Origin: Eledone cirrhosa
Lineage: Eukaryota
Assembly: GCA_964016885.1 (NCBI GenBank)
Contig: OZ024747.1
Coordinates: 35,526,001 to 35,590,000, forward strand
Direction: 5' to 3'
Length of the DNA stretch: 64,000 bases
The notes beneath the pieces are model-generated. The model worked only from the letters and a program-made list of their open reading frames with translations, searched no databases and was not told the DNA's origin. Shown one piece after another: positions 15,631 through 59,744 of this stretch (the first letter of the stretch is position 1; each line of letters starts with the position of its first letter). The position numbers and the translations under genes were made by a program.

Positions 15631-16129
15631 ATATATATGAGAACCCCATATATATATATGAATACAAATAGACAAGGGTTAAAATGTCCTCTTAAGTATT
15701 CTGCTGATTTATCGTTGGTATTTCGACGCATTAAAAACTAGATACCTAAACTCAGTGCGAGCGATAACTCAATCAAGTTATCGGGACAGTGGGAAAACGG
15801 AGGGAAGGAAACAAACACATGGTGGTATGCAACGAAAAGAGAGGAAAAATTGAGACAAGTCAATGAATCATGTGGGCATAAGCCCGACATATCAAATTGA
15901 CGAGGAGAAAAAGACAAGTCCGAGCTGCGAGAAGATTGAGAGAGGACAGAAATTCAAGCAGGTCAGACGGGAGGAAGTGAGAGGGGGGAGAAGCAGAGAG
16001 CGAGTGAGTGAAAGTGGGAGGAAGGACCAGCGGAGAGAGATTTACCAGCAGTAGAAATTGAGGAAGTCAAGTGGTGAAGGAGAGAGAAAGGGTGATAGCA
16101 ATAATGTAACAGAAAATATACGAACCACA

Positions 16130-26460: not shown

Positions 26461-26641
26461 CGTTATTCCGGGTTGAATCGGAGGTAACCACAGTAAGTAA
26501 AGTACTCAATACATAGCAGAGTATAACAGTTTTAATATAGATGAGATTCTACAGGACTAGAACTGTTTCATTCATTAGAAATCATCAGGGATTCCTGATG
26601 ATTTCTAATGAATGAAACAGTTCTAGTCCTGTAGAATCTCA

Positions 26642-26648
<7 letters not shown>
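26461..26648. repeat. PLE pLTR end with a head-to-head HHR hairpin
   Basis: Arms 26535-26589 and 26594-26648. The plus-strand HHR at 26589-26639 is intact. Confidence 0.88.
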
Positions 26649-26713
<65 letters not shown>

Positions 26714-26971
26714 GATAAATCTACCAAGAGTTTACGGTAGTGAAAAATCACTTTCGGTGAAAGATAAACGGTATACAGAGTCAATATTGTTGAATATGCA
26801 TGCCAACTCTAACACATATATATCCTAGAAACGATCGTTAAATAATGAACTTTTTTTGTTTAATATAAGGAATTGTTTATTCATTATTTGTTTAATATTT
26901 TATATATATATATATATATATATGTGTGAAGAAAATCCTAGCTATCGGAGTATCGTTCTTTTTATTTACGT

Positions 26972-27073
26972 GTCCCAACGACTTTTTTTAGCCGTTGTTC
27001 GCACCAACCTGAGGTATATGGCCCTTAAAGCGATGAAATGCCTGGGACGGTTGGAGGGTCACTGATGAAGGAC
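26972..27073 (+). ncRNA. Hammerhead ribozyme with non-canonical (scrambled, pseudoknotted) segment order, copy 1
   Basis: GGTA-TA-TGGCCCT..GCGA-T-GAAA-TGCC..AGGGTCA-CTGATGA-A-GGAC. Helices covary with 41308 and 47119. Confidence 0.75.
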
Positions 27074-27154: not shown

Positions 27155-27990
27155 ACTCCGATAGCTAGGATTTTCTTCACTTTGCTGAAATTACACTTCC
27201 CCATACAACATAGGTACCACACCATCTTTAATAAAAACACATTAAGACTGTCTTACTCCACCACACCTAACCTAGCTAGGAATATAGCCAACCACAATTC
27301 TAAAAAATTAAATAAGCCAACCACCTCCGAACCCATTCCCCGGACTGGGGCTCTATGTAATTGCCTAAATAAGGAAGCATGCCCACTTGAAAACAAATGC
27401 CTCACAAATGATATCGTATACAAATGCGATGTCATCTCAGGCACCGAGGATTGCAAAAAAACTTACACCGGCATGACCTCCAACAACTTTAAGACCCGTT
27501 GGTATGCCCACACCCACTCCTTCAGAAGACTGGACAAATCAAATCAGACAACACTCGCCTCCTACGTTTGGGACCTCAAAAGTAACTCCACCCTCTTCAC
27601 GCTTAACTGGAAAATACTCCAGAGGCGTGCTCTTACAACGGAGGACATAAGGGCTGCGACCTTTGTATTTCAGAGAGCTACGAAATTTTATTCGCCAAGG
27701 GCCCGCTACTGAACAAACTCTCTGAACACTGCCCGAACTGCATGCACAAGAACTTTGCAACTTTCAAACACTTTAAGCCAGTGTTAAAGCCCGATGGCTA
27801 AAAACGACCTCCCCCTTTTGGCCCCTATACATCCTTCCCACCCTACCCCACCCCTCCTCAACCTGAAATACGGCCTCTATGGTTATGTGAGTACCTCTTT
27901 CCTATCTACATTTTCTGTCTGTAGAGGTGTTTTTATGTGCCTGCGTATATGCGTATATTTATTGAGTACTTATTTATTTGTATGTGTATA
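27155..27990 (+). pseudogene. Naiad-like PLE 3' fragment (linker, GIY-YIG and tail start), inverted relative to the 32505 ORF
   Basis: [33 protein letters not shown], near-identical to the reverse complement of 32340-32990. Frameshift at about 27625. Confidence 0.92.
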
Positions 27991-32504: not shown

Positions 32505-34325
32505 TTAGCCATCGGGCTTTAACACTGGCTTAAAGTGTTTGAATGTTGCAAAGTTCTTGTGCATGCAGTTCGGGCAGTGTTCAGAGAGTTTGTTCAGTAG
32601 CGGGCCCTTGGCGAATAAAATTTCGTAGCTCTCTGAAATACAAAGGTCGCAGCCCTTGTGTCCTCCGTTGTAAGAGCGCGCTTTCTGGAGTATTTTCCAA
32701 TTAAGCGTGAAGGGGGTGGAGTTCCTTTTGAGGTCCCAAACGTAGGAGGCGAGTGTTGTCTGATTTGATTTGTCCGGTCTTCTGAAGGAGTGGGTATGGG
32801 CATACCAACGGGTCTTAAAGTTGTTGGAGGTCATGCCGATGTAAGTTTTTTTGCAATCCTCGGTGCCTGAGATGACATCGCATTTGTATACGATGTCATT
32901 TGTGAGGCATTTGTTTTCAAGTGGGCATGCTTCCTTATTTAGGCAATTACATAGAGCCCCAGTCCGGGGATTGGTTTCGGAGGTGTAATTGTTGGCGGAG
33001 AGGCCAGATATTCTAATAGAGACGCTTTTTACTAGGTTATCAGTGATGTTTTGGGGGTGGTTAGAATTAACATTAATATATTTAAGGGACTCGTTAGGTT
33101 TGTGGTACGGGTAATAGAGGGAAGTATCTAGGTCGAGAGTGACATCTAAGAAGTTGGCCCTAGTCAAATTAGAATCTATACTTATACTAAATCCTAGATT
33201 AGAGAAGAAAGAGCTTAAGTTTTTACGAAACCCATCGGTGGTTCTGGGGCTAACCTTATGCAGGGCGAAGAGGCCGTCGTCTCGGTATAAACCTCCAGTT
33301 AGGCCGGTAAAGAGGTTATTCAGGTTATGTAGGATGTACAGGCCCACAAGGTCGCTAATTTCAGCCGAGTCACTCGCCCCCATGCTAACGTCAAATGGGT
33401 TCTGAGATTTCTTGTTGATCCAGTAAGATCCATCGTGGTATAGAAAGTTCTTACGAGCGTGGAGGATAATAACTTGCTCAGCATCGGTAATGGTGGTAAA
33501 ATTCCTGGCAAAGTTAATTGCGTCCTTCAGGAGGGGCTCCGAGATAGAGGCATAGTAGTTTTCTATGTCAAGTTGCAGGAAGCGAGTGTGGTGTTTATCG
33601 GGTAATTCTTGGAACCATGATATTGCCTCAGATGTTCTACTCCAGAGTGGAAGTGGTGAGGCTGCCCGCAATGATGGTAGAACTCTATCCAGGATCTTCT
33701 TACTGATAGAGCCGATGTCAGAACGAGTGGGGTTGATAAGTCTGACTGATGGTTTGTTGAGGAAATTTCCCTTATGGTCCTTCAGGGTAAAGTGCGGGGT
33801 CTTTACCCTTAAAGGTTCGGTTCGGTCGTGTAATTTAAGGGACTTGGCGATTTCTTTTCCGGCCGCGTTTGTCTCAGTCAGTGCCCTCTCTATTACCTTT
33901 TTGTAGGTGGTCGTGATGGTATTTTTTGCCAGCTTATTGTAGGTCTGTGGGTCTACCTCATAAACTTTTTTGGTTTTATCGGAGGAGACATAAAGATTAG
34001 GGGATTTTTTTATATTCCGTAATTCGGCATTTAAGTAGGCCTGGAATGGTGTGGTGGCTCTACGGAATTTAATATCCTTGATCATCTTGAAGAGGTCTTC
34101 TTCAAATGGTTGGAGTAGGCTGTTGCTGGGTGGTGTCTTATTCGTTTTGAAGCCGAACTTCTCATCATTGGTAGATGCTACATCAGGTTTGTCGAGGAAG
34201 AAGGCCCTCCATCTAATTCGCTTGATGAACTCGTCGGTACGTCTGATGAGTGTTTTTAAGTATAGTTTCCTTGGAGGGATAGGGATGTTCTTCAAGGAAA
34301 TATCAAGGTCGAGTTTGGTCATCAT
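32505..34325 (-). CDS. Penelope-like RT plus GIY-YIG polyprotein, open frame with an internal in-frame deletion
   Basis: [56 protein letters not shown] and CDLCISE. Start is placed at the first ATG; the ORF track extends to a TTG at 34421. Confidence 0.93.
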
Positions 34326-34455
34326 GGTTTCTTGATGATGGTTATAAGGGGCACAGAGAGTGCTAAAATGTACGTTATTCCGGATTGAATCGGAGGTAAC
34401 CACAGTAAGTAAGGTACTCAATACATAGCAGAGTATAACAGTTTTAATATAGATG

Positions 34456-34506
34456 AGATTCTACAGGACTAGAACTGTTTCATTCATTTGAAATCATCAG
34501 GAATCT
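34456..34506 (-). ncRNA. Type I hammerhead ribozyme (5' pLTR)
   Basis: Identical to 29668-29718 and located just upstream of the ORF. Confidence 0.85.
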
Positions 34507-40850: not shown

Positions 40851-41461
40851 GCAATGAAATATCTATGATCGTCGGCAAATAACTGATGAGGGACTTATTT
40901 TATTACATGTTATCCATGTGCTACTAGCAGTATTTTTCTCCCCATTTTATCACATATATTTACCTAAACTGCGATTCTGTTTTTTTCTCTCACTCTCTCT
41001 CTTACTGCTCCCTCATTATCTCTGTTTCTCCTACTTTCTTTCACCCCCTCTGTCATATCAGTTAACTCATCCTCACACTTCCACTCACTCACTCAGTGTT
41101 TCTCCTCTCCTCACTTCACCCCGTTCGCAACGAAAGCAATTTCTCTCTTTCTTACATTGCATTCGTTCGCGAAAGGTCTTTTTTCTAAACGCTCATATAT
41201 TCACCTAGTTTATGCTAACAGAATAACTATGAAGCTTGTTTCCTTCCTCTACGGTTAGCTCTACTCTTTGTTGTTTTCTTGTCTCAGTCGCTTTACGCGT
41301 TTTAGTTGTCCTAATAACTTAATTTAGTTATTATTGCACCGACGTGAGGTATATGATTGTTAGGCAATGAAATATCTATGATCGTCGGCAAATCACTGAT
41401 GAGGGACTTATTTTATTACATGTTATCCATGTGCTACCAGCAGTATTTTTCTCCCCATTTT

Positions 41462-44089: not shown

Positions 44090-46197
44090 TTTCTGAATTT
44101 GTTTAGCAAGATTCTTTATCTGAAATCGTGTGTTGAAACCGATATTGTTATACTTTGGGAGGGTCATGTTGCCAATAAGAAACACACGCACCAGTTGTTT
44201 CACTTCAATTTATTATATATTTATAAATTTATAAATTTACAAATCTACAAACTTATATATTTCTGGTTGGTTGGTTGGTTCCACAACCAGATAGTTGTTT
44301 ATATATAGTCATAGTCCTTTCGTCACACACTCTGTGACCTCTTGAGTGACTGGGGATTCCTTCCTTTGTTTCTGTGCCTTTCCTTTCTTCTATCCTACGC
44401 CATTTTGTTTCTGTGTGTGTGTTGTGTGCTCAGTTTGCGCATGCGCCACATCCGGGTGTCTGTGTGTGTTTGTGTTCATTTATCTATTTGTTTATTTATT
44501 TATTTATTTATTGTTGGTTGGTTGTTTGTTCTATGTGTGTGTGTATTTTCATTCTGTCCTGTGTGTGTTTTCATTTTGTCCTTAATTGTAAGTTGTGATG
44601 TTGCTGTTCCACTCATATTTTCTATTTAATTTTGGTTGTAATTCTTTTATGCTTACTGCCTCTGTAATTTGCCTAAACATTGCATCTTTTCTGTGTGTGG
44701 ATTCTATTTTTATTTCTATGTTCTCTAATCTACCCCTGTGTTCTATCTTAGCATGTTGGTAGAGCACAGATGATTCTTTATTATCTTGAAGGTCTCGCCA
44801 GTGTTCATTTATTCGTTCCCCTATACTACGAGCTGTCTCACCTATGTACACTATATTTTTGTTTCTACATTGTCCTTCAGTACATCTAATGCTATACACT
44901 ACATTTCTAGTTTTACAGTTAATATGGGGGCTTATTTTACAGGTTATACATTTCTTATCTATACATGATGGTCTTTGGAACGGGTATGTCTTGCTAATAA
45001 GTGTTTTTACGGAGGTACCTGGTCATTCTACTATCTTAATATTGAGTTTATGTTTATTTAGGGCCCTTCTAAATTTGTAGGCTAGTTCGCCTCTAGGGGT
45101 TGTATTGATAAACATTACACTCTGGTATTTATTGCTATCATACCATGAGTTTATTCTATTGGCCTTGTTCCTAGTTCTTTCTATTCTATTTCAAAATTTG
45201 CTCCTATACAAGGGGAAGGTCCCATTTATGTCATTATTTACCATTTTTTCCCATTTGGTTCTGGCTCCTCTATACACTCTGATTCTATCTCTCTGATTGT
45301 AGCCAGAGAACTGCATACGGTGGATGAAGTGTTGTATGTGTCTCTCTAGTTCTTCGGGGTTGCCCATGCGGGACACATTTCTCATCACCCGTACCAAATC
45401 CGCAATCAGTATGTTGATTTTGGTATGGTCCGAAATGGCCGAGTTTCGGTGGATCAGATGTTTGGAAGTCATGGGTTTGGCATAATGGGAATGGAGGATT
45501 TGTTTTTGGTTGTTAATGGTATCTAACCGATTACCTGTACTAGACACAGAGCTTTGGTTAGATACCATGACTTCCAACATGTGCTCTACCAACATGCTAA
45601 GATAGAACACAGGGGTAGATTAGAGAACATAGAAATAAAAATAGAATCCACACACAGAAAAGATGCAATGTTTAGGCAAATTACAGAGGCAGTAAGCATA
45701 AAAGAATTACAACCAAAATTAAATAGAAAATATGAGTGGAACAGCAACATCACAACTTACAATTAAGGACAAAATGAAAACACACACAGGACAGAATGAA
45801 AATACACACACACATAGAACAAACAACCAACCAACAATAAATAAATAAATAAATAAACAAATAGATAAATGAACACAAACACACACAGACACCCGGATGT
45901 GGCGCATGCGCAAACTGAGCACACAACACACACACAGAAACAAAATGGCGTAGGATAGAAGAAAGGAAAGGCACAGAAACAAAGGAAGGAATCCCCAGTC
46001 ACTCAAGAGGTCACAGAGTGTGTGACGAAAGGACTATGACTATATATAAACAACTATCTGGTTGTGGAACCAACCAACCAACCAGAAATATATAAGTTTG
46101 TAGATTTGTAAATTTATAAATTTATAAATATATAATAAATTGAAGTGAAACAACTGGTGCGTGTGTTTCTTATTGGCAACATGACCCTCCCAAAGTA

Positions 46198-46816: not shown

Positions 46817-47118
46817 TTGTACCACTTGCTTTCATTCATCCCTCTGCTTGTCACACTCTCTCGGCTCGCTTCTTCCTCACACATTCGCTCACTGACTCTC
46901 TGCAGCTCCTCCTCTCTCACCTCCCCCCGTCAGTCCTGTGTGAAATCCTTTTGTTGCTCACATTTCACAGAGTTTGGACGCTTCTGCCGCTTTCTCATCG
47001 TTGATTTGGTCGAACTTAAGTTCACATATATCGTTGACTTGTCCCTCATTTCCTCTCTTTACGTTGCCTTACTATTTTCGTTTGTTTACTATCCCTCTTT
47101 CTCCACCCAATTCACTCT

Positions 47119-47221
47119 GTCCCAATAACTTATTTTAGTCATTGCTCGCACTGATTTTGAGGAATCTGGTCTTTAATGCGAAGAAATATCGATGATAGTC
47201 AGAAGATCACTCATGATGGAC
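47119..47221 (+). ncRNA. Scrambled-order hammerhead, copy 3 (core mutated to CTCATGA)
   Basis: GTCC..TCGC-A-CTGATT-TTGA-GGAA-TC-TGGTCTT-TAAT-GCGA-A-GAAA-TATC-GAT-GA-T-AGTCAG-AAGATCA-CTCATGA-T-GGAC. Confidence 0.68.
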
Positions 47222-47246
47222 AGTTCTGTTTCTCGCTCTATTTTAA

Positions 47247-53885: not shown

Positions 53886-54038
53886 GGGTTTTGTGCCCAA
53901 TATTTATTTTAAACAAAAAAAAAACAACATGGCTACGAAAAAGAATTTTCATAGGTCACTCCCACTCATTCCGTCTTCTTCTTCCTCAATCGTCACTACA
54001 GCAGAGAGAAGATTGTCTCTCTCCCCCCTTCTTTAAAT

Positions 54039-55640
54039 GTGTCTCTCTCCCTCCCTTCTCTTTCGCAAGCGACGACAGAAAAGAAAAGTCTCGTGCAAAG
54101 CGTGCAATATTTCACAACGACGACGACGAAACAGGTGTGCGGGAAATACGAAAACCCATTTCATTCGTCTGACGTCAGGAATAATAGCAGTAGCAGCCGT
54201 AATAACAACAGCAACAGTGACAATGAAAACAAAAGTAGCAGCCGCAACAGCATCAGCAGCAGCATAAACAACAACAGCATTAGCAGCAGCAGCAACAACA
54301 ACAACCACAGCAACAGCGGCGGCGGCAGTAGTCGTAGTACCTGGAGCAACAACAAAAGTAACAGCAGCTCTGACGACAACAACAACAACAACAACAACAG
54401 CAAAGAAAAACCAATCTCGTTTGCAGGTATCGCGAAGAACCTGGAAACAATCCTCATAACAAATGAGGAATTAGAGGAAGCGAAGAAGATGGTGACAAAA
54501 ACTGCACACCGAGCAATCTGCAAGGCAGCGGAAAACTTTTTCGAAACCCAACAGCACTGTACGGTCACGTACCGTACAGTAAGTACAAAATCCCGTAGGG
54601 TGGAAAGAGCTACAGAGGCTCAAATACAAAAAGCCTTGGGGTCTGTGTGGCAGCGGATAACGCACATCACTCGAGGCAAGAAATAAGCCACCGTAGACAT
54701 ACATTTTGCCACACCCCAGGAGGCAAAGGCTCAATCCGTAGTGACCCTAAGGAGCGAGGAAATAGTGTTGGTTCCCTCCTACTGCAGGCAAAAAATTGTG
54801 AAGGTCAAACTGACCCACGTCCCCACCAGGATGGCCCCTTCTTGGCTGGCCGCGTCTGTCCTCGTCGGAATCGAGGACAAAACAACTGTACTGCAAGTAC
54901 AGAAAAAAGTAAGAGAAGATTGGGTCGGCACCTCATTTGAGATGTTAATGCAAACCAACCAGGAGTGCATCGAAGCTATCCCGGGTGTGATAGACTTCGA
55001 TAACGGCACTCAACTGCCCATAAGTGTTGAGGGCAAACGCCCGAAATGCTTTCGCTGTGGATCGAAGACTCACCTCAGGGCCTTCTGCAACGAGAAAACA
55101 CTGAGAAAGGAGAAAACGCCCCTCCTTCCGAAACCGGCTCCACGGCTACCAGCAACAGGACAAGCGGCAACGATAGGTCCATGGCACCCATAACCACGCC
55201 ACGGAAATCAAAAACAGCAGCAGCAGTGGAAGTATTAACAACAACAACAACAGCAATACCAAATTCAGCTGCAACAGAGACTCCAGTGCAAACATCACCA
55301 ACAACAACAAGTGAAAGAGTGGAACTGGTACCCCTCCCCGACCTCACAGAATCAGACATGGAGTGTGAGGTGGGAGAGGGATGGCAAAAGGTCGTAAGAA
55401 GGCACAAACGCAGAAGCAGCGCATCGTCGTCTTTGAAAAGGGAGGAAAGAAATGAAAAAAGGGTAAAGTCTACTGCAAAGAGACTCACAGCAGCAACACT
55501 ATCAACACCATCACCACCCACACTAGCACCACCATCACCACCGGCGACAACCCCAGCGCCAACAACAACAACACCTTCAACACCACCACCACAAGCACCA
55601 ACATCGCAAACACAACAACAAAACGCACACACCCAGTAAA
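54039..55640 (+). pseudogene. LINE ORF1 (gag-like, CCHC knuckle)
   Basis: CFRCGSKTHLRAFC. Premature stop at 54684-54686 and frameshift at about 55100. Confidence 0.8.
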
Positions 55641-56063
55641 AACGACGAGAAAATAGCAGAACCACACCCCACCCCCAGAAAAACAAATGCACGGCAATAA
55701 ATACACACAACAAGAAACTAATGACTTACATAATTGAACACACAGACACTACACAACACGACACATAATACCAGCACCAATAAAAACGCCAACTAACATA
55801 AGACTGCTAAAAACAGCACAGAAACTATACACAAACATTAAAACGAAATTCCACAACGCAGTTGGTGATTTCAGAGACCTAGGAGGAACTATCAACCGAA
55901 GAGTATATTCGGACATACTCATAGAAGAGCCGATGACCAGCCGAAGGGACGATTCAACGGTCCCTTCACCAGACGATCAAGTGAAAAGGGATGTAAAAAC
56001 CATCCCTCCTCTACGAAAAGTACGGCAAGTGGTCTTTCCCATCTTTTCCACTCTATTTTAAAC

Positions 56064-59000
56064 ATGACCTCACTCAGAATAGGCAGCATAAATGCGCTTG
56101 GCTTGGGGTCGTCATGGAAGGAGGGTCACCTGCACAACGACCTCAGGTCACTAAACATAGATGTAGCGGCCATCAGCGAGACCAGAATCTCCGAAGCACG
56201 GGACTTCGCACCTATCTTCGGAGTCTACGATGTGTACGCATCTCCCAGCCGTCCTGGATCGGGGGGAGGAGTTGCTGTGCTTTTTCGGAGAGGTTTGGAT
56301 CTCGCCATACGGGCCATCTTCCTGGACCCAGAGGGTAAGTTGGTGGTGCTGGACGTGACCAGCGATGACAGGCAAGCTTTCAGGCTAGTGGCCGTCTATG
56401 CCCCGCCAGGAGCAGGGCGGCCTGATTTCTTCCGGCGTCTGGAGACCTTTCTTGGAACGTCCCGCTCTTTAGTGTTAGTGGGCGACTAGAACGGGATCTT
56501 AGATGCACGCTGGGACTGTGTGGGATTAGCGGATAGGGGTGGAGGGTGCAAGAGCCTCACCAACCTGCTCAGTCGTTTTGAACTGTCTGACAGGTACCGA
56601 TTGGATTTCCCGAATGTGCCAATGTGGACTTGGACAAATCGCATAGAGTCATCCAGATCATATCTAGATAGAGTATTTTGTAGGGAAATAGATAGGTCTA
56701 GCATAGGCTTTCCACATTCAAGATAGTCAGCTACACGGACCACAAATTCGTGATCTGTGTGCTTGACTTAGATAGGCTTCATAGACGAGGACCCGGCTAC
56801 TGGAAGCTAAACGCGTCCTTACCAGCGCGCAAGGCCTACAGAGACCGGATTAGCGAACTACTTAAGCGGGCGTTGACGGGGGCCATCGTCAACAACAAGT
56901 GGTGGTTTGCTGTGAAAAGAGCGATTAGAATAGAATCCATTAGGTTTAGTAAGGCTTTAGCAATAGAGAAAAATAGAGCAGAGTGAGAAATAGTTAGAAA
57001 ATTAGACGAGGCGCTTAGCAAAGGCATTGCAACCGACGTGCTTGCGGCGAAATTGGCCCTTGACCAATTCTTCAATGCAAAACACGAAGGCTGCGTTGTC
57101 AGAGCAAGGCTGCGTTCTCTCAGACACGAGGGGACGAAAGCATTTCAATGGACCCAAGTGGCGGAGGCGCGTCGTGGCAACAAAGCCACGATCCGGTCTT
57201 TGGTGGACCACGACGGGCGCATGCTACTCGATCCCGGGCAAATGTGTGAAGCTTTTCAGCGACACTTCGCTCAGCTGTTCGGGGGCAGTGGTGGGCCGGG
57301 TCGAGGGATGGACTTTAGTGTCTACCTCGACGGACTGCCACGGCTCTCGGCCACTGAGGCGAAGTGTTGCGAAAAGCCGATAACAGCCGCTGAAGTAAGG
57401 GAGGCAATGATTGGCTGCACAAGGGGTAAATCGCCTGGTTTGGATGGTCTGCCCTATGAATTTTACGTACAGATGCCAGACTTGTTCGGAGCCCTCTTGG
57501 CGGACGTCTACAGCAGCTGGCAACAGAACGGGAGAATTCCCAGTTCTGTGAGCCGAGGAGCGGTGGCACTGCTGAGAAAGGATCCGAACAAGGGGGATAA
57601 CATAGATAATTTCCGGCCCATAACTCTGCTAAACACAGAGTTCAAGATTTTGGCCAAGGTGCTAGCAAAGAGGTTGGCGCTTGTCGTTGGTGGTCTGGTG
57701 GGAGAGGCGCAGACATGCGCCATTCCCGACAGATCCATCTACGACGACACTTCCACCTCATGCGATACATCGTAGAGAGGGTAGCTAGGGAACCTGGCAC
57801 GGGTGGGTCCTTGATCAATTTAGATCAGTCGAAAGCTTTCGATAGGGTCGACCATCGTTACCTAGCGGCAGTCCTGAGGGCGGCTGGCTTTGGGCCCGTC
57901 TTCAGAGGCTGAATCACTGCCATGCACAGCGACATCTGTTCTGTGGTGAGAGTGAACGGTCACCTGTCGGAACCATTCAACATCATGCGCTCGGTCCGCC
58001 AAGGATGTCCCCTCTCGCCCCTCTTCTACGTATTGACTCTCGAGCCATTACTGCACAAACTGGAGACTTTAAGGGGCATACGGCGCGAACTAGGATGCGG
58101 AAGATCTGTGTCAGCATATGCGGACGATGTCACTGTAGTGGTGTCGAACCCCAAACACATCGAGGCGATCGGCACTACACTAAGAGAATACGAAGCGGTG
58201 ACAGGAGTAATGATCAACCAGGAAAAGTCAGTGGGCCTGCAGCTCGGCACCTGGAGAGGCAGGTCCATGCCGTCCAACAGCGTCGTCAGACGCTGGACGG
58301 ACGGACCGGTTAAATTGCTAGGGGTCTGGTTCGGTCCGGACCTCCAGACGTACACAAACTGGGACGAGGTGACGAGCAGGGTGGCTTCTCTCACCCAGAA
58401 ATGGGCGGTGAGGAAGCTATCCCTGAAAGGTCGAGCGGAGGTGGATAACGTGTACATCGCGTCTGTCATCTGCTACCGCCTGACCGTCGTACCTTGTCCT
58501 AAGCCTCGCCTGACTGCGCTGGAGCGTTTGCTCTTTCGCTTTTTGTGGAAGGGACGCGCTCCGATGGTCAGGCGGTCCATCTGTTGTCAACACCCGCTAC
58601 GTTGAGGGCTGGGCATGCCGTGGCTGATGATGCGCAGGCACGCGCTCAGGCTACGACATCTCCACCTCTTCCTCGACGGTAGTCAGGTGTGGTCGCCGTT
58701 TACTAGACATGTATTTCCCCAGCTCGTTTCCTTGACGGAGCTGCAGTCCTGGGTCAAGCGAAGACCGAGAGGGAGCGCCTGGAGACTGGAATGTCTTCAG
58801 GCGCTCACAGCCCTCGACCAATCGGGCAATTTTATCGGTGGAAACTCCTCCTCGGCGTTCTATAGAGGATTAGTGGAGGGGAAGAGCGACGGCGTACTTG
58901 GGGAAACTCTAGGCGTCGACGAATATCAACTAGCCAATCTCTTCGGAAGAACTTTCGGGCCAGGGCCTATGGACAACTTCCAGAAATCTCTGGCCTGGAA

Positions 59001-59484
59001 GTGCTACCGAGGAGCCTTGCCAGTTCGGGATAAACTCTACAGGCATGGAGGTGCCGTCAGTCGGGCATGTCCGAGATGCGCGCAGGGCGACGAAACCGTC
59101 CTGCACGCACTCGTCCAGTGTCCGAAAATTGCTGACTTGTGGGTTTATGTCGAACACCTGCTGTCGCGTTTAGGACGGATCCGGCTATCATCTGAGTCCA
59201 TGGTGAGGATTGCCCCGCCCTCCTCCTTTAGCCGGGAAGGGCAGGCAGTTTTTATCTGTCTGGTGGCCATGGCGAAAGAGATAGTATGGTGGACACGTTT
59301 GAAAGGGCTGAAGACGAGCACTTACCTCTTTGGTGATGCTCTGATTGACTTTTTCAAATTTCATTTGAAACGGAAAATCAGAGTAGAGAGGGAAGTGCTC
59401 TCTTCCCAGCATTTTGTTGAAAGATGGGTGAGAGAAGCAAGAATGGCCCGAGTGAATGGGCCTACTCTGAGTATATATCTGTAA
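56064..59484 (+). pseudogene. LINE ORF2 (APE endonuclease, RT and C-terminal zinc finger)
   Basis: AISET, VYAP, LVGD*N, SYLDR, TDH, WKLN, KSPGLDG, FRPITLLN, KAFDRV, RQGCPLSP, YADD and CPRC..HALVQC. Four stops and two frameshifts. Confidence 0.95.
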
Positions 59485-59744
59485 ATTAAAGGTGGAAAAC
59501 TGGGAGAGGGCACATGCCTTGGTGGTCAGGGTCATTGTGGACTTTTACTGGGCTTTCTCCACAAATGTCCCTCCGAAGTCTCCCCCCTATTGGGGAATTT
59601 TTCATTGTTATTTTTTGTTACATTCTCTGTTTTTGTTTTTTACACGCAGAAATGCCCATTTGTACCGTCCTGTGTTGTCCTGCACTGTCCTTAATGTCTA
59701 CTTTATGTAAACCCTTGTGGTTAATAAAGAAATCATTATTATTA

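Follow-up and report, generated by a model that had tools for sequence, protein, structure and literature searches.

Hammerhead ribozymes whose conserved blocks follow the order S-G-C (type SGC) were described in 2023 from metatranscriptomic data (Eckert et al. 2023, PMC10085705). [quoted passage not shown] The question arises again in a repeat of Eledone cirrhosa, which occurs several times in the 64,000-nt stretch of contig OZ024747.1 analysed here (the window; positions 35,526,001 to 35,590,000). In copy 1 (26972-27073), the arm that extends stem III carries a loop resembling a kink-turn (k-turn). We consider it likely that a kink in this arm turns it back so that the scrambled ribozyme closes as a monomer, the k-turn being one of several solutions.

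Architecture of the predicted ribozyme

Copy 1 lies on the forward strand. Its upstream scaffold strand (26972-27003) starts with the 5' strand of helix a (26972-26975), whose partner follows CUGAUGA-N. A hairpin (26976-26997) comes next, then the 5' strand of helix b (26999-27002), whose partner precedes GAAA; after a 1-nt linker the strand enters the NC helix. The non-bulged strand of the NC helix (27004-27009; partner 27049-27054) is followed by U3n, G2n and A1n of the k-turn (27010-27012), then by the C helix, which is the 3' strand of hammerhead stem III, and A17 (27013-27018). By analogy with other hammerheads, the cut is predicted between 27018 and 27019. The 5' strand of stem I (27019-27024; partner 27056-27061) leads to a segment (27025-27034) made up of the UUAAA linker, the 3' strand of helix b (27030-27033, paired with 26999-27002) and nucleotide 11.1 (27034). 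The GAAA core block and the 5' strand of stem III, that is, the other strand of the C helix ending at C-1b (27042), occupy 27035-27042; the bulged strand of the k-turn comes next (27043-27048; bulge UGG, G1b, A2b, C3b). The bulged strand of the NC helix and a 1-nt linker to stem I (27049-27055) precede the last segment (27056-27073), which contains the 3' strand of stem I, the CUGAUGA core (27062-27068), nucleotide 10.1 (27069) and the 3' strand of helix a, GGAC.

The blocks are in the order S (stem III 3' strand, UH, stem I), G (GAAA) and C (CUGAUGA), which is type SGC in its non-circularly permuted form. Copies 1 and 2 of the window have this order together with CUGAnGA, GAAA and UH; the cores of copies 3 and 5 are mutated. 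Stem II is a single base pair followed by a four-way junction; 10.1 and 11.1 pair in 14 of the 17 lineages described below and are not fixed as G-C. A second junction joins stem I, helix b and the NC helix through linkers of 0-1, 4-5 and 1 nt. Sequence and covariation place the far end of the arm 0-1 nt from the tip of stem I and 1 nt from helix b, which replaces stem II. An Rfam scan of the 64-kb window at gathering thresholds gave no matches.

Stem I and helix b are joined by a UUA(A) linker (27025-27028; A2 columns 61-64) that is almost invariant. It is seen again in an old lineage of the family and in some published Naiad ends (PMC8557442), and may make a tertiary contact.

HRIMA-1 and the other SGC variants of Eckert et al. 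share with this fold the S-G-C order, CUGAUGA, GAAA, UH and a short linker between stems I and II (PMC10085705). In those hammerheads the strand after stem III pairs downstream as helix 'I', whereas here it pairs upstream, as the presumably kinked extension of stem III; where HRIMA-1 has helix 'I', the present fold has the NC helix, made when the strand that precedes stem I finds its partner upstream. Stem II also differs: the published descriptor calls for two or more base pairs closed by G10.1-C11.1, and here one variable pair is followed by the four-way junction that splits the stem (PMC10085705). Identity with HRIMA-1 is ruled out by this different wiring. The words 'kink' and 'k-turn' do not occur in the text and supplement of PMC10085705.

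Identity of the loop in stem III

Read directly, the bulged strand of copy 1 is ATGCC-TGG-GA-C-GGTTGG (27038-27054) and the non-bulged strand CCAACC-T-GA-GGTAT (27004-27017). Along the extended stem III at 27004-27054, the 5-bp C helix gives way to a bulge of 3 nt, the pairs G.A/A.G and a C.U mismatch, after which a helix of 6 bp follows. Standard k-turns (Kt-7, SAM-I, the U4 5' stem-loop, box C/D) have in common with this loop a C helix ending in C:G, the 3-nt bulge, G1b.A1n and A2b.G2n, a non-canonical 3b:3n and an NC helix (PMC5061560, PMC4382518, PMC5689011). Unlike them, the present loop is known from sequence, sits in a predicted self-cleaving ribozyme of a mobile repeat, and has a C helix that doubles as catalytic stem III.

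The sequence-only reading had described this motif in all three copies that it recognised. Copies 1-3 indeed have the bulge and GA/GA, with TGG in copy 1 and GAT in copy 3 as described, and the two strands given for copy 2 agree with the window letter for letter (41339-41352 and 41372-41388); two further copies, 4 and 5, had been overlooked. Copy 2 (41308-41407, +) is a complete motif. Copy 3 (47118-47222, +; k-turn 47151-47165 with 47186-47202) is decayed: bulge GAT and GA/GA are accompanied by one additional U in the non-bulged strand, by an A.A mismatch within the C helix and by the core CTCATGA. The extra U is a lineage-wide trait; the A.A mismatch and the mutated core are private to this copy. 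Copy 4 (about 40851-40900, +) is 5'-truncated; all that is left is the bulged strand of the k-turn together with blocks G and C of the core. Copy 5 (about 15686-15790, -) has a decayed core (CTTAAGA) and a non-standard k-turn with U at 2n, its non-bulged strand reading UA where GA is expected.

The genome was searched with a pattern that specifies no k-turn base, and with a control pattern for comparison. The pattern has 16,734 matches and the control none; a chance origin of the motif is ruled out by these counts. GA stands directly after the 5-bp helix and 3 nt in 16,199 of the 16,734 (96.8%). Both GA bases are altered in 69 matches, which by eye are mostly single indels. Since the copies share ancestry, counts at the level of lineages carry the weight. 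The 17 lineages used here are each represented by one hand-picked copy, from loci L001-L173 and the window, after clustering of 159 distinct copies.

On the tree of these lineages, G1b, A2b, A1n and C-1b do not change at all. Their neighbours do: L1 changes 6 times, L3, 3b, 3n and 4b 5 times each, and 4n 4 times. A canonical C helix and a 3-nt bulge are present, with G1b, A2b and A1n in 17/17 lineages and C:G at -1b:-1n in 16/17. G2n accompanies A2b in window copies 1-3 and in 12/17 lineages; the other five have U at 2n. L2 is a purine in 17/17 and L3 is U in 11/17. The G.A pairs are followed by an NC helix in which 94.1% of cells are paired.

Over the 33 named pairs of the fold, 94.8% of 555 cells pair in the 17 lineages. 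Changes on both sides are found in 20 of the 33, against 11.5 in shuffles, a comparison inflated by kinship, and at most 6 in slid controls. The pairs concerned are 5 of 6 in the NC helix, 5 of 6 in stem I, 1 of 5 in stem III, 5 of 7 in the hairpin, 2 of 4 in helix b and 1 of 4 in helix a; stems I and III of the hammerhead both show covariation. Invariant flank columns number 2 of 131 and 2 of 102, and as several flanks are truncated these were not taken as background. Pseudoknot-free folding, a method that cannot show the whole fold, gives both arm helices a mean pair probability of at least 0.5 in 9 of 17 rows only.

The agreement with the k-turn consensus that had been claimed for these copies is thus borne out, at the level of sequence, by four unchanged bases in 17 lineages and a covarying NC helix. 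The identity of the loop at 27004-27054 as a putative k-turn is well supported.

Departures from the standard k-turn

U at 2n, the commonest departure, goes back to a single change from G to U on the tree of the 17 lineages, which are all related to one another; it covers five lineages, one of which is represented in the window. A pattern for bases other than G at 2n, which does not require the core, has 2,163 matches (control 2); among the 100 of these listed, about two thirds are by eye true copies with U at 2n. One of the five lineages also has C:G at 3b:3n, which leaves a single G.A pair.

Position 2n is where natural k-turns depart most often from the consensus (PMC5061560). Kt-23, with U at 2n, folds (PMC2790904, PMC5061560); in Kt-7, G2nU blocks ion-induced folding (PMC5061560). 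The five lineages resemble Kt-23 in this base, and four of them also have a mismatch at 3b:3n. Kt-23 has two non-Watson-Crick pairs after A.U, whereas these lineages have one or none; their folding is therefore less certain than that of Kt-23.

A further lineage, which we call old, was reached from 4 of the 69 exceptions; it has 274 first-look candidates, of which 40 were scored. Nineteen of 20 loci (L174-L193) were aligned, with a mean identity of 80%; L182 was left out as mis-anchored. Stems I and III are present here, as are helix b, the NC helix and the 1-nt linkers, with sequences that differ. This lineage lacks the hairpin, which makes the junction at stem II three-way, and CUGAUGA is retained in 10 of 19 copies. 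At the place of the k-turn, all 19 copies have a 4x3 loop, with 4 nt (AUAU in 10, GUAU in 8, GCAU in 1) opposite 3 nt (CCA in 15, others in 4). A1n and an A at the 2b-like place are retained, and there is neither a bulge nor G1b in any of the 19; this loop is not a k-turn. In a tree that includes it, built on 74 columns with F2 and F3 out of register and with an unreliable root, the old lineage groups with the lineages that have U at 2n (bootstrap 86), and the ten GA/GA rows form one group (bootstrap 91).

GA/GA and bulge length had been expected to be conserved across copies, and a failure of this had been named in advance as an argument against the k-turn. Twelve of the 17 lineages do have GA/GA; with U at 2n in five and no k-turn in the old lineage (19/19), the argument applies in part. 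These departures are counter-evidence that the present analysis adds.

Related folds in Naiad elements

Naiads are Penelope-like elements that favour TA repeats and are reported without canonical hammerheads (Craig et al. 2021, PMC8557442); some are marked HHR_half_core there. Within the supplement of that paper, 45 of 62 CTGATGA and 15 of 23 CTGACGA places were examined by eye; one CTGACGA opens on place 37. At least eight places read, by eye and neither aligned nor scored, as the same SGC fold. A standard k-turn, with bulge AAU and different helices, is seen by eye in at least two 3' ends: those of Naiad_Ovul and of the preceding record, which by its order is Naiad_Obim. At least three related places have a one-sided bulge of 7 nt and at least one a 5x2 loop, in each case by eye with short linkers and on the same strand. 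By eye, at least one place has its loop on the opposite strand, and at least one end, place 37, has a 2x1 loop in an arm that is nearly straight; such an arm could hardly close as a monomer. A decayed Naiad-type copy in the Eledone genome, L194, has GA/GA and a 3-nt bulge between helices of different sequence.

Naiads and the present repeats share TA-repeat targets, tandem and inverted copies and, in Naiad_Ovul-type elements, the fold with a k-turn; unlike Naiads, the repeats encode no protein (PMC8557442).

These relatives bear on whether the loop is a k-turn in geometry at all. It could be a flexible or moderately bent hinge, with G and A kept for sheared pairs or some other tertiary contact. 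Lineages with U at 2n can form an A-U Watson-Crick pair at 2b:2n, the change G2nU stops ion-induced folding of Kt-7 (PMC5061560), and the old lineage retains its two A residues where the bulge is absent. A fixed 3-nt bulge, G1b, A2b, A1n and C:G at -1 are however together the signature of a k-turn, and this signature recurs with different helices in the Naiad ends examined and in L194. We regard a mere hinge as very unlikely.

Proposed turning back of the stem III arm

Stem III of the hammerhead stacks coaxially on stem II (PMC10085705). It points away from the tips of stems I and II, so that the arm that extends it would have to reverse. A stick model was built with stem I at 20-65 degrees; all angles in the model are assumed. 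In this model the distance from the tip of the NC helix to the tip of stem I is 60-69 Å with a straight arm, 28-44 Å with a bend of 90 degrees and 8-24 Å at 50 degrees. With linkers of 0-1 nt, nothing but a sharp bend would close a monomer.

The proposed mechanism begins with the k-turn at 27004-27054, which would bend the stem III arm back toward stems I and II. A k-turn of 50 degrees would reverse the arm, mostly through Mg2+ and the surrounding helices and with no protein required. The bend-back of stem III had already been put forward in the sequence-only reading; it fits the short linkers and the rough model, and we infer it on that footing. As varied loops occupy the place of the hinge, it is the bend that looks required, with the k-turn as one solution. 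Because the kink is weakened or lost in some relatives, its role is probably that of a structural hinge and not of a protein switch that the ribozyme requires.

The arm could also be straight or loosely bent if neighbouring units formed a strand-swapped dimer, in which it would reach stem I and helix b of the partner unit, with the k-turn just favouring the monomer. The repeat units are in tandem, a twofold swap would close by symmetry, and dimeric hammerheads occur in animal retrozymes (PMC7229834) and, by the title of one paper, in Penelope-like elements. The old lineage and one of the Naiads examined have no sharp-bend motif, and near-straight arms of this kind may act as swapped dimers. 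On the other hand, strict retention of the k-turn bases in the young, abundant lineages speaks for a kinked arm, and a single unit has all partner strands within about 105 nt, the units being 516-632 nt apart. A dimer as the general form seems quite unlikely, and a monomer closed by a kinked arm is preferred.

Possible control by 15.5K/Snu13

A k-turn may also be a binding site for proteins of the L7Ae family. The host 15.5K/Snu13 could bind here and gate folding and cleavage in vivo, a reading that we hold to be unlikely. Equally doubtful is its extension, that 15.5K/Snu13 snaps stem III back, converts an extended or dimeric form into the active monomer, and so times the processing of a Naiad-type retroelement and its parasitic repeat. 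L7Ae favours U at L3 and a purine at L2. The base counts given above agree with these preferences, but L3 changes repeatedly on the tree.

Binding of L7Ae folds every 3b:3n variant of Kt-7 tested (PMC5061560). Natural k-turns differ in whether they need such help: the U4 k-turn, with a Watson-Crick 3b:3n, is protein-dependent, C at 3b or G at 3n leads to folding in ions (the Lilley rules), and U:U at 3b:3n with G:C at 4b:4n folds very poorly in ions alone (PMC5061560, PMC4382518, PMC5689011). In the 17 lineages, 3b:3n is U:U in 9, C:U in 2, U:G in 2 and C:A, A:G, A:A and C:G in 1 each. The family falls outside the U4 class (Watson-Crick or G.U at 3b:3n): 3b:3n is non-Watson-Crick in 16 of 17 lineages and Watson-Crick in one, which speaks against gating. 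So does the ion-folding rule, which is obeyed by six lineages, copy 1 among them; nine are intermediate and one is non-folding. U:U, frequent as it is, favours gating; the poorly folding combination of U:U and G:C, characteristic of the box C/D class, is found in 2/17 and in none of window copies 1-3. Copy 1 itself has C:U at 3b:3n, favourable for ion folding, and G:C at 4b:4n, unfavourable.

Also against gating, lineages without a k-turn have been amplified, and other Naiads among those examined have plain bulges; binding in vitro is moreover to be expected of nearly any k-turn and would be no proof of regulation. With C:G at -1b:-1n and a non-Watson-Crick 3b:3n in 16 of 17 lineages each, the sequence mostly fits k-turns that fold in ions, and the case for control by 15.5K is accordingly weak. 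The closed frame of helices should help the k-turn to fold. 15.5K may well bind it; gating of the ribozyme is unsupported. A natural ribozyme responsive to L7Ae would, if true, be a useful switch, and this is the weakest link of the proposal.

Predicted cleavage and the mobile repeat

The hammerhead-type RNA in the repeat is probably self-cutting, because its core is conserved and by analogy with other hammerheads. An alternative is that the fold serves as a 3' recognition signal for the reverse transcriptase of the element and is not an active ribozyme. The altered stem II and the variable 10.1-11.1 would suit such a signal, as would the 5' ends of truncated copies, which have no clear tie to the cut site. 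A TA run joins at the predicted cut in at least 10 of 22 distinct loci (by eye, among 100 matches listed of 3,098 overlapping), but all ten belong to A17 lineages with TATAT microhomology across the site, which confounds the signal. Rows of the C17 type among the matches listed join, by eye, 1-5 nt before or about 2 nt after the predicted cut. In the fetched loci, the 0-19 bin contains 8 breakpoints and each of the other bins 1-9; one breakpoint falls exactly at the cut. Against a recognition signal, CUGAUGA, GAAA and UH are retained across lineages, stems I and III covary, and type-SGC RNAs cleave in vitro (PMC10085705). We judge a mere signal extremely improbable and take the RNA to be a predicted ribozyme in what follows.

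The copies sit in tandem units of about 632, 516 and 567 nt, which by eye are rich in pyrimidines, with inverted and truncated neighbours around them and TA runs often adjoining. First-look candidates for three families number 804, 1,939 and 1,547. Metazoan non-LTR retrozymes are similar in their tandem non-coding units, the single hammerhead in each and the link to Penelope-like elements (PMC7229834; bioRxiv 10.64898/2026.07.22.740005). Unlike the retrozymes described in these sources, whose units of about 150-450 bp contain a type I hammerhead, the present repeat has type SGC in units of 516-632 nt. The predicted ribozyme would cut tandem transcripts into unit-length RNAs, and the reverse transcriptase of a Penelope-like element, probably a Naiad, would reinsert these at TA repeats. 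Mobilisation of the repeat by a Penelope-like element is what we infer from these features.

A Penelope-like fragment makes up a short inverted repeat (26926-26953 and 27155-27180). Copy 1 is at its centre, as would be expected had it inserted into the TA where the orientation switches. At the ends of Penelope-like elements with a C-terminal endonuclease, the window also contains minimal hammerhead-like motifs whose blocks follow the canonical order: at 26519-26647 (cores 26595 + and 26588 -), 25265 -, 29712 -, 34500 -, 38338 +, 39000 + and 42588 +. Two of them lie head to head at 26590 in a perfect palindrome. An open frame of 651 aa (32505-34460, -), apparently with an internal deletion, presumably carries the reverse transcriptase and GIY-YIG-like motifs of a Penelope-like element. 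Another fragment of such an element (44540-45900) has a Cys-rich linker and a GIY-YIG-like motif, and its 3' end is present again as an inverted copy. CTGATGA also occurs in three related stretches of another repeat (9163, 19143 and 20124, - strand; CCACTGATGATTT..AAG.GCCCACC). We take 54000-59500 to be a LINE-like element whose endonuclease and reverse transcriptase frames are broken up.

Significance

A natural hammerhead with a built-in k-turn was not found in the literature searched (subscription papers and bioRxiv supplements lay outside its scope). Hammerhead and k-turn are each known already; that literature did not show the two combined in mobile repeats of animals. Naiad elements, reported without canonical hammerheads in the sources consulted, gain a candidate ribozyme. 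For hammerheads that are not circularly permuted, the family shows a concrete answer to how stem III may reach stems I and II, and its GA/GA, GA/UA and k-turn-less forms make up a natural allelic series within one genome.
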